Assembly: GCF_057098645.1 (NCBI RefSeq)
Contig: NZ_CM169472.1
Strand: one strand, 5' to 3'
DNA length: 64,000 nucleotides
Below, in pieces: positions 13,701 to 16,700 of the stretch (positions are counted from its first letter, which is position 1; the number at the start of each line of letters is the position of its first letter). The position numbers were made by a program.

Positions 13701-16700
13701 GGTTGTAAACGTTTAGCTGGAAGTCGAGATTGCGATTAACCCGATACCCCAGTTTGGCATCGGCGACCCAGTAACCTTCTGTAAACGCTGGCGTTCCCAC
13801 CGCGCCGTCTGAACCTTTATGCATACTGCCGATATAGCGTGCGCCCGCGCCAACAGAGATATCTTCGGTTGCCTGATATTGGCTCCATAAGGTGAAGGCG
13901 TGCTCCGGGGTATACGGCAGCGATGAGGAACCATCCTGGGCAACATCTTTGCCGTTTTTGATGGTTGCTTTTTGCTGGGTATAGCCGCCAATCACCTGCC
14001 ACGCGGGAGTGATATTCCCTGCCACGGATATCTCATAGCCTTCGACGCGTTTCTTACCGTATTGCGAGTAAGTCCCGTCATCATTTTGCTCAACTTCATT
14101 TTCGATATCAGTACGGAACAGCGCGGCGGTGAGCAACAGGCGTTTATCCAGAACCTGCCATTTGGTGCCAATCTCGCTGGTGTTGGCTTTTTGCGGTTTA
14201 AAATCGGTGCGGTTGGCACTGTTACCGCTGCCAGACTGCGCAAGGGCGAAGTTGTTGCCGCCCGGAGGCTGCTGGGAAACGGCATAGTTAATATAGACAT
14301 TGCCGTTTTCCGTCAGGTGATACAGCGCCCCGGCTTTCCAGTTCACCAGATTGCCCGACTTGGCGGTGTCGACGGTGGTGACCGGAGAACCTTTTGCCAC
14401 ACCAGCTGGGCAGGTGATGGCACCGCGTCCGCTGCCGCCGCAGGCGGTGGCACTGTCATATTCAGTATGATAATTATCCAGACGGATCCCGCCGTTCAGC
14501 TCAAAATCACGGGTGATTTGCAGCGTATCGAAGGCGTAAATTGCGAAGGTATCCGTCTGACCATTGGCGTTTGCGCCGTTGCGCGTCAGGCCGCCGGGAT
14601 GAATGCTGCTGTCAGGATGATAAATATTTACCGCAGGTAACGTCACCGGATTAACGCCGTAGTTAGTCTGCGTTTCACGGGTAAATTCCACGCCGGTACT
14701 GACATCATGACCGATAGAACCGGTATAGAACGTCGAGGTCAGGTTGGTCTGGTTGGTGAGAATTTTATTACTCACATCTTTAGTATTCGCCGTGCGTGAC
14801 CAGGTCCAGCTATTCACATCGCTGGTGGGCTGGGTAATATTCGACGCCCCACCCATAATCGCCGTCATCAGGTAATCCTGCTTCACGCGCGACCAACGGG
14901 TAGTGTTGCGAATGGTGGTGTTATCGTTGATGTCGTGCTCAAAACGCATGGTAGCGGTGTCGGTGGTCGAATCGTCGTAATCGGAATCCGTGCCGTAAAA
15001 GTTATGCGTATCAACTTTTCCGGAATGATTCAGGGTCGCCGTACCCGCAGATGGGGCAGAATAGCCCGGCAAACCGATGGTTGGAATGCCGCCGTCTGGC
15101 GTGTTGTGCTGGGTGACATGCAGATAATTAAGATACAAACGATTCGCTGTACCAAGGCCAAAAGCGACAGAAGGGGCGATGCCGTAACGCTCATTTTTGA
15201 CTTTGTCGCGTCCGGCATCGTGCGTTTTTTCGCCCATCACATTCAGGCGCACCGCGGTGGTATCACCAATGACCTGATTGACGTCCAGCGTGCCGCGGCG
15301 GAACCAGGCGCTGCCAATACTGGCGGAGGCGTCAATGCCAGAATCATTGCGCGGCTGCTTGCTGATCATATTGATCGAGCCCGTCGGCGCGCTGCGCCCG
15401 TAGTCGGTGCCGGAAGGCCCTTTAATCACTTCGACCTGCTCAGTATTGAAGGTGTCGCGCGAGACGCTGCCGATATCGCGAATGCCATCAATATAAATAC
15501 TGTTAGAAGTATCAGCACCGCGCATATAAATGGCGTCGCCAGTGGTGGAGTTACCGTTCTCACCAGCAAAAAATGCACCCACGCCGGGGACGTTTTTGAG
15601 CGCGTCGGTAAGGTTGGTTGCGCCCTGATCTTTAATCACTTGTTCAGAAATTACCGTCATCGTGCGGGTAGTATCCGCTACCGGACGTGAGAATTTCGGA
15701 TCGGCAGATTGTTGTGGCGCATAAAGCGAAGGCGTTGATGCTTCGACAACCAGCGTGTCATCCGCGTTAGTTTGCCCTTCGGCGGCGAGTGCCTGAGCCA
15801 CAGGCGTGATGCCAATACAAAGACCGGCAAAGAACGTGAGCGAATGAAATTGTCTGGCAGGGAAATTGCGATTGTTTTCCATTTTGCAGGTGACTTTTTC
15901 TTATATGTTGAAATTTTCACTGCCACGAGAAAGCCTCTCTGCGGATGCGATGCCACTGTTAATCTCGTGCAAGTGATAATAATTTTGATAAGCATTATCA
16001 CTTGGCGCGATTTTCTATCACCCATTGTGCGAAAAAGAAATACATTTATTTACATTGCGTTCATATTTGATGTTTTTTGATTACAAAACAGACGAAAACT
16101 GCATCCAGAGGCGAATGCAGTTACGTTGGTGGGGTTATTTGTAGATGGTTGCAGTACCGAACATCTGGTCATTTCCGCCTGCGGAATTAATGACATAACC
16201 TTTCGCGCCTTGTTCGCGCGCTTTTTCTGCCAGTTTATCCTCCAGATCGCTTAGGTTTGATGCGCCAGTTGCCGAAACGGTACCGGCGGGCCGTAGCTGA
16301 CCGCTGTCCAGGTTACTCATCGGTTGCGCGGCATAAGCCGTGAGAGAGATTCCGCTCAGGACGGTGGCAATCAGTAGCGTGAGGCACTTTTTCATAATGA
16401 CATCCTCATAAATACAACGGGTAGTGCCTGATAAGTGTAGGTCGCCTGCGCGATGAAAATGACGCAAAAAATTGACAGAGATGTGCTTGTTTTTTGAACG
16501 ATATATTTTTACAAAATAAGATAAATCAATGACATGCATAATGCTGATTTTTATGATGAATTGCCATAAACCATAGCCATGTGAAGGTGTTTAGAAATGA
16601 TAAACGCAGCCAGATATTTACCCTGTCGCGTTATGCGGGTATCTTACGCCGCTGCTTAAAGGAGAATGCTATGTCCGCCCAGAAACCGGGGTTGCATCCG

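Follow-up and report, generated by a model that had tools for sequence, protein, structure and literature searches.

The 29-bp palindrome upstream of fiu in this E. coli chromosome is very probably the Fur operator of the fiu promoter, a reading to which we assign a probability of about 0.94. Sequence, statistics, position and conservation were assessed here, and occupancy and expression data were drawn from the literature. Every feature of a Fur box that can be tested from sequence is present, and the rest is covered by published data on identical DNA. The fiu Fur operator is already known from binding, expression and reporter work; the site described here is real, conserved and ordinary. Since it belongs to textbook iron regulation with genome-wide binding data, it carries little weight as a discovery. 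The analysis confirms that a genuine operator can be recognised from sequence alone, and it now settles on which strand the operator lies, how the genes are ordered and how far the operator truly extends. Coordinates refer to the 64-kb window, that is, the whole stretch of DNA analysed (Table 1).

Table 1. Positions of the operator, promoter elements, genes and hairpins in the 64-kb window.
Feature	Position	Strand	Basis or remark
ybiI, C4 zinc-finger protein, 88 aa	12541..12807	-	ORF and annotation
ybiX, PKHD-type Fe(II)/2-oxoglutarate hydroxylase, 225 aa	12881..13558	-	NCBIfam equivalog NF003972, ORF residues 13-237; K-12 annotation
GC-rich hairpin GTGGGGC-GCAG-GCCCCAC followed by TTTTT, fiu-ybiX gap	13575..13592	-	terminator scan
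fiu, catecholate siderophore receptor, intact, 760 aa	13600..15882	-	NCBIfam equivalog NF007349, 1507 bits, full length
Core Fur operator, 29-bp palindrome	15973..16001	-	fiu sense: GTGATAATGCTTATCAAAATTATTATCAC
Predicted sigma-70 -10 hexamer GATAAT	15994..15999	-	consensus scan only; inside the Fur box
Published K-12 fiu start sites (two), mapped onto the window	16002 and 16005	-	identical flanking sequence
Upstream conserved Fur-like TGATA element GTGATAGAAAATC	16009..16021	-	promoter scan, conservation 0.80, ChIP-exo edge
Predicted -35 hexamer GTGATA	16021..16016	-	consensus scan; within the GTGATAGAAAATC element
Conserved AT-rich block AATGTAAATAAATGTATTTCTTTTT 5' of the operator	16033..16058	-	mean column identity 0.85
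mcbA terminator: hairpin 16097..16122, then U-rich run	16085..16122	-	RNA fold -16.5 kcal/mol, z-score -4.3
mcbA, upstream gene	16135..16395	-	annotation

The operator and its match to the Fur consensus

The preliminary description had quoted the 27-mer GATAATAATTTTGATAAGCATTATCAC at 15975..16001, and this is what the plus strand of the window reads there. Extended by two bases, the 27-mer becomes a perfect 8+8 inverted repeat, GTGATAAT-N13-ATTATCAC, of 29 bp. The palindrome lies 91-119 nt 5' of the start codon (ATG) of fiu, which is on the minus strand, and includes two 7-1-7 Fur motifs, one matching at 13/14 and the other at 12/14, with an offset of 12 bp. The quoted 27-mer is real, but the functional operator is larger: it is bracketed in vivo at ~15964..16010 (see below) and is joined by a third, TGATA element further upstream.

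Sites were scored against a 19-bp Fur consensus (GATAATGATAATCATTATC) and against the 7-1-7 motif (TGATAATNATTATCA). A consensus scan places the top register at 15981..15999 with 15/19 matches, the joint-best score in the window. Six overlapping registers of at least 13/19, phased by 6 bp, are stacked at the box and form the densest such cluster in the 64 kb. Dinucleotide shuffling never reproduced this cluster count, either in 100 shuffled copies of the whole window or in 5,000 of the 252-bp intergenic region; registers of 15/19 or better turned up in 0.2% of the intergenic copies. With up to two mismatches allowed, the 7-1-7 motif has five matches in the window versus 0.17 expected. Two fall within the box: 15986..16000 (13/14), the sole one-mismatch match in the window, and 15974..15988 (12/14). 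The remaining three lie in the coding sequences of opgE, ybiV and pdeI. The 19-bp consensus has a further 14/19 match at the coding 3' end of ybiX; the fiu box is the only strong Fur match in non-coding DNA of the 64-kb window. The other Fur-like matches, at 12907, 25461, 33640 and 47656, were discarded as operators because they fall within coding sequence. Given the 15/19 score, the stacking, and the shuffle and 7-1-7 statistics, the match is far above chance and the site was fairly labelled 'near-consensus'.

Conservation of the box at fiu

A search with the Fiu protein, taking one genome per species, gave 43 loci, 40 of them full-length, from about ten enterobacterial genera (genera sampled: Escherichia, Citrobacter, Klebsiella, Raoultella, Enterobacter, Leclercia, Silvania, Pseudocitrobacter and Pantoea). 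For 39 of the 40 loci, the 300 nt 5' of fiu hold their top Fur match, at 14/19 or better, at a distance of 101-112 nt from the ATG; in the exception, a Klebsiella MAG locus, the top match is 181 nt away. When 20 sequences from about ten genera were aligned, mean column identity was 0.85 for the palindrome, versus 0.60 for the leader down to the ATG and 0.63 for the short spacers; in the same alignment without Escherichia the palindrome stands at 0.84 versus 0.61 for the leader. The GTGATAGAAAATC element (16009..16021) reaches 0.80 over the 20 sequences. The palindrome is a conserved island at orthologous fiu promoters. A Fur-like site is also kept in four loci that have no detectable mcbA upstream or ybiI downstream (three from Pantoea and one labelled Enterobacter ludwigii), and its retention at fiu in the loci without mcbA argues that the box travels with fiu.

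Promoter geometry

Consensus scanning of the fiu strand found one sigma-70-like promoter, composed of a -35 GTGATA, a 16-nt spacer and a -10 GATAAT. In K-12, fiu start sites have been mapped to 840886 and 840889 (NC_000913.2), with 5 reads each (Kim et al. 2012, PMC3415461, supplementary file 2). The same table gives fiu as 838472..840754, which sets the offset to the current K-12 record at +777. The published starts lie 1 and 4 nt 5' of the palindrome and place it at +2..+30 or +5..+33; at 5 reads each, they are ~15 nt off the start predicted from the -35/-10 scan. No entry for fiu start sites was found in the Cappable-seq and SMRT-Cappable-seq supplements.

The operator spans about -14 to +15 relative to the predicted promoter, or +2 to +30 by the published starts. 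Under either architecture it lies inside the polymerase footprint, overlapping the core promoter and start as judged from the predicted -10 and the low-read published sites. The preliminary description had put the site in the fiu upstream region and had raised the objection that start-site mapping might leave the motif outside the promoter. The placement holds, with the site overlapping both the mapped and the predicted core promoter and conserved across genera, and the objection fails. The conserved AT-rich block 5' of the operator could be a UP element, a -35 region or an ArcA-bound region. A permissive Rfam scan of 15500..16700 returned no RNA family, which leaves the fiu leader without a known riboswitch or sRNA.

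Published Fur binding and response to fur deletion

K-12 MG1655, W3110 and O157:H7 Sakai all carry the same 29-mer. A published MG1655 Fur ChIP-exo peak at 840869-840893 (841646-841670 in current coordinates), annotated 'fiu-ybiX, intergenic', spans the upstream 17 nt of the box and 8 nt further (Gao et al. 2023, PMC10164565, supplementary file 3). The W3110 peak (842081-842093) adjoins the upstream edge of the box, and in Sakai two 13-bp peaks, 966077-966089 and 966111-966123, flank the box (966086-966114) on both sides, equivalent to ~15964..16010 of the window (PMC10164565). The upstream ChIP-exo edge of W3110 and Sakai corresponds to 15998..16010. Published Fur ChIP data, a check that had been proposed, thus show peaks that overlap or flank the identical 29-mer in all three strains.

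Deletion of fur in MG1655 changes transcript levels (log2) by 5.47 for fiu, 5.21 for ybiX, 3.04 for ybiI and 0.40, which is not significant, for mcbA; fiu and ybiX are raised 37-44-fold (PMC10164565). The corresponding W3110 values are 10.0 (~1000-fold) for fiu, 7.1 for ybiX and 5.3 for ybiI, with mcbA unchanged (PMC10164565). fiu belongs to the core Fur regulon of nine strains, with log2 responses to fur deletion ranging from 5.5 to 10 (PMC10164565). A fiu promoter-lacZ fusion is Fur-repressed, the operon there being named fiu-ybiX (Beauchene et al. 2015, PMC4676285); H1780, a fiu::lacZ strain, is a standard Fur reporter (PMC3050691), and the fiu promoter has been employed as an iron sensor (PMC5126674). 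The last paper, citing Newman and Shapiro 1999, ascribes four overlapping Fur sites to the fiu promoter. The strong de-repression of fiu and ybiX in these deletions, on identical DNA in other strains, bears out the iron-repressed expression that had been proposed for both genes. Carried over to the present strain by sequence identity, the published data suggest that the operator would be bound by Fur and that fiu would be expressed in a Fur-dependent manner.

One could read the palindrome primarily as part of the core promoter (a -10 with an AT-rich discriminator) or as a chance AT-rich repeat, its likeness to Fur sites being incidental in either case. The -10 candidate GATAAT does belong to the box, the intergenic DNA is AT-rich (38% GC), and ~11% of intergenic shuffles contain an exact inverted repeat of 8 nt whose arms are 0-20 nt apart. 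However, none of the 5,000 composition-matched shuffles stacks Fur registers in this way, both arms of the palindrome are kept across genera far more than a -10 hexamer requires, and the Sakai Fur ChIP-exo edges flank exactly the palindrome sequence (PMC10164565). We consider this reading highly improbable.

An equally small chance attaches to the proposal that another regulator, ArcA or CRP, is the chief user of the site and Fur a secondary one. ArcA ChIP peaks are present at the fiu promoter, where Fur and Crp are the annotated regulators (PMC3798270 supplements), and Fur repression of fiu is unequal in aerobic versus anaerobic growth (PMC4676285). Yet the ArcA peak centres (840921 and 840928 in old coordinates; PMC3798270) correspond to 16037..16044, about 40 bp 5' of the box in a separate AT-rich block, and the authors of that study did not call an ArcA site at fiu. 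Even when up to three mismatches are allowed, no match to the ArcA direct-repeat consensus occurs near fiu. Moreover, loss of fur alone de-represses fiu from 44-fold (MG1655) to ~1000-fold (W3110) (PMC10164565).

A model of repression

With Fur as the main user of the operator, repression could proceed as follows. Under iron-replete conditions, Fur dimers charged with Fe(II) would occupy the palindrome (15973..16001) and the TGATA element (16009..16021); two 7-1-7 motifs offset by 12 bp and a region of ~47 bp bracketed in vivo make at least two dimers likely. Because the Fur sites cover the fiu -10 region and the transcription start, RNA polymerase would be excluded, and promoter occlusion is the likely mechanism. 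When iron is low, Fur without metal would leave the DNA and fiu would be transcribed. Part of the fiu transcripts would then pass a conserved hairpin into ybiX and probably continue into ybiI.

Like the fiu box, classical Fur boxes, such as those of fepA-fes, cirA, fhuA and the aerobactin gene iucA, are AT-rich arrays of GATAAT-like hexamers or overlapping 7-1-7 repeats. They overlap the region from -35 to +1, and Fe(II)-Fur represses there by promoter occlusion. The top two 7-1-7 units of the fiu box, in contrast, are offset by 12 bp, where the textbook offset is 6 bp; the result is a long 8-N13-8 palindrome, and the fiu box has an extra TGATA element 20 bp upstream.

The fiu-ybiX(-ybiI) transcription unit

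mcbA, fiu, ybiX and ybiI all lie on the minus strand. The mcbA terminator separates this gene from the box and shields the fiu promoter from transcription coming from mcbA. The least credible alternative is that the Fur site serves mcbA, for example as a downstream roadblock, and not fiu: mcbA is the next gene upstream, has the same orientation and lies 134-162 nt from the box, but the terminator between them is strong, mcbA is indifferent to fur deletion (log2 0.40, not significant; PMC10164565), and the box stays at fiu in loci without mcbA upstream.

The preliminary description had placed the box upstream of a 'ybiX-fiu' operon with a co-transcribed ybiX. fiu and ybiX do form one unit, but the order is fiu and then ybiX, probably with ybiI as the third gene, and it is fiu that the box precedes. 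The ChIP-exo assignments list 'fiu, ybiX, ybiI' as a transcription unit (PMC10164565). A gap of 41 nt separates fiu from ybiX, whose true start is 13558 (the mechanical ORF extends to 13594); ybiX follows fiu in 40/40 related loci, and ybiI in 35/40. The common strand, the short gaps, the adjacency and the co-regulation are those of a transcription unit, with co-de-repression taken from the literature. The fiu-ybiX gap is not free of terminator-like structure: it holds a conserved GC-rich hairpin, so the co-transcription of ybiX, well in line with the strand, the 41-nt gap and the co-de-repression, would need read-through.

A similar stem, changed on both sides, is found in most of 17 related loci examined, with a variable U tract. 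Two Escherichia loci with a 212-nt gap and a Pseudocitrobacter locus, among the same 17, have a differently folded gap. The hairpin probably acts either as a leaky terminator or to stabilise the 3' end; it qualifies the operon claim and does not overturn it. For ybiX, neither an intergenic Fur site of its own nor another strong promoter was seen, which, together with the hairpin in the gap, suggests that ybiX is expressed through read-through. In fur deletions the ybiX transcript is ~5-fold below that of fiu, yet its Fur response is equally strong (PMC10164565), and a terminator-like hairpin fits a ybiX level of about one-fifth of fiu. The simplest account would be that partial read-through of a leaky terminator sets the receptor-to-enzyme ratio.

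A leader deletion in the present strain

The present palindrome is 100% identical to that of the K-12 fiu operator, and the two share the flanking genes, the conserved blocks on the upstream side and the fiu-ybiX-ybiI order downstream. The strain differs from K-12 in 2-3 flank substitutions and in the absence of 12 bp of leader just 3' of the operator. The 24-kb stretch 4000..28000 is 99.9% identical to O145:H28 strains, one insertion aside; the 12 bp are missing relative to O145 and Sakai as well. The deletion begins 4-9 nt 3' of the palindrome, its junction being ambiguous within a 6-nt CACGAG repeat (15964..15969). O145 has CACGAG-CACTAT-CACGAG at this place, a pattern that suggests slippage as the origin.

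The deletion allele was found in 0/5,426 complete E. coli genomes; the 12 bp are retained in 5,391/5,391 of those with a full-length junction match, none of them gap-free. On contigs encoding an identical Fiu protein, 3/3 among the matches listed have the usual spacer of ~264 nt. The box-to-ATG distance is 90 nt here versus 102-104 nt in other Escherichia and Citrobacter, and the operator has moved 12 bp towards the ATG relative to every complete E. coli genome.

Since the deleted segment lies just beyond the downstream Sakai ChIP-exo edge, no effect on Fur binding would be expected. A TATCAC repeat lost with the deletion may be the most distal of the 'four overlapping Fur sites' described in PMC5126674, and the loss also brings the operator 12 bp nearer the ribosome-binding site. 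It is unlikely that the leader deletion measurably alters fiu repression or leader function and, as a separate matter, that the fiu-ybiX hairpin is a regulated attenuator and not passive. Fiu imports catecholate-conjugated antibiotics such as cefiderocol, so susceptibility to such antibiotics could shift if the deletion did have an effect of this kind. An IS2 element is present inside espX2, and it is flagged here along with the 12-bp leader deletion as a strain-specific change near a siderophore-antibiotic uptake gene.

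Sequence features around the fiu operator and the fiu-ybiX-ybiI genes

The Fur box upstream of fiu, which encodes a catecholate siderophore receptor, is flanked on one side by an AT-rich block and on the other by a short deletion in the 5' leader. We found that the centres of the ArcA ChIP peaks published for fiu (PMC3798270) map to 16037..16044 in the window, on the AT-rich block. The block has no match to the ArcA consensus, and its TGTA repeats are spaced by 10 bp versus 11 bp in that consensus. Its possible roles include those of an UP element, a –35 region and an ArcA site of non-canonical sequence. 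The deletion shortens the distance from operator to start codon of fiu by 12 bp and removes a TATCAC repeat. It was found neither in any complete E. coli genome searched nor in three contigs that encode an identical Fiu protein.

Features of the window
Feature	Position	Strand	Remark
AT-rich block AATGTAAATAAATGTATTTCTTTTT	16033..16058	-	conserved equally to the Fur box
12-bp deletion, fiu 5' leader	junction 15964..15969		between CACGAG repeats in direct orientation, a few nt downstream of the Fur box
GC-rich hairpin and U run	13575..13592	-	within the 41-nt fiu-ybiX gap
Fur-consensus match, 14/19	12907..12925		inside the ybiX 3' end
IS2 element	about 4400..5700		interrupts espX2
IS2 TnpB	4483..5388	-

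The hairpin between fiu and ybiX is kept, with both sides of the stem altered, in the majority of the related loci that we compared, and is probably a leaky terminator or a 3' stabiliser. Such a role would explain why ybiX transcripts are ∼5-fold less abundant than those of fiu in fur deletions (PMC10164565). In two other Escherichia species (loci L007 and L008 of the Fiu protein scan, about 4281..4495) the gap is 212 nt long versus 41 nt. By eye, the additional segment resembles a REP/BIME-type palindromic repeat acquired by insertion; a GC-rich hairpin is still present at the distal end of the extended gap.

The Fur-like match within ybiX lies 100–118 nt upstream of the ybiI start, the same spacing as that between the fiu box and fiu, and a ybiI start site inside ybiX is given in the K-12 start-site table (PMC3415461). 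No separate Fur ChIP-exo peak is reported at this match (PMC10164565), and it is therefore probably not a functional site.

Insertion in espX2 and Fiu fragments in other assemblies

The type III effector gene espX2 is disrupted by IS2 in the window, with the ORF at 5668..7137 corresponding to its C-terminal part. In the closest O145:H28 genomes espX2 is intact, and the corresponding stretch is 1,324 bp longer in the window.

The Fiu scan also returned fragments 98–99% identical to the E. coli protein from two contigs, each about 390 bp long, labelled Streptomyces sp. DH24 (L045, L046) and from a MAG labelled 'Bacteroides' (L029). These almost certainly reflect contamination or mis-binning of public assemblies.
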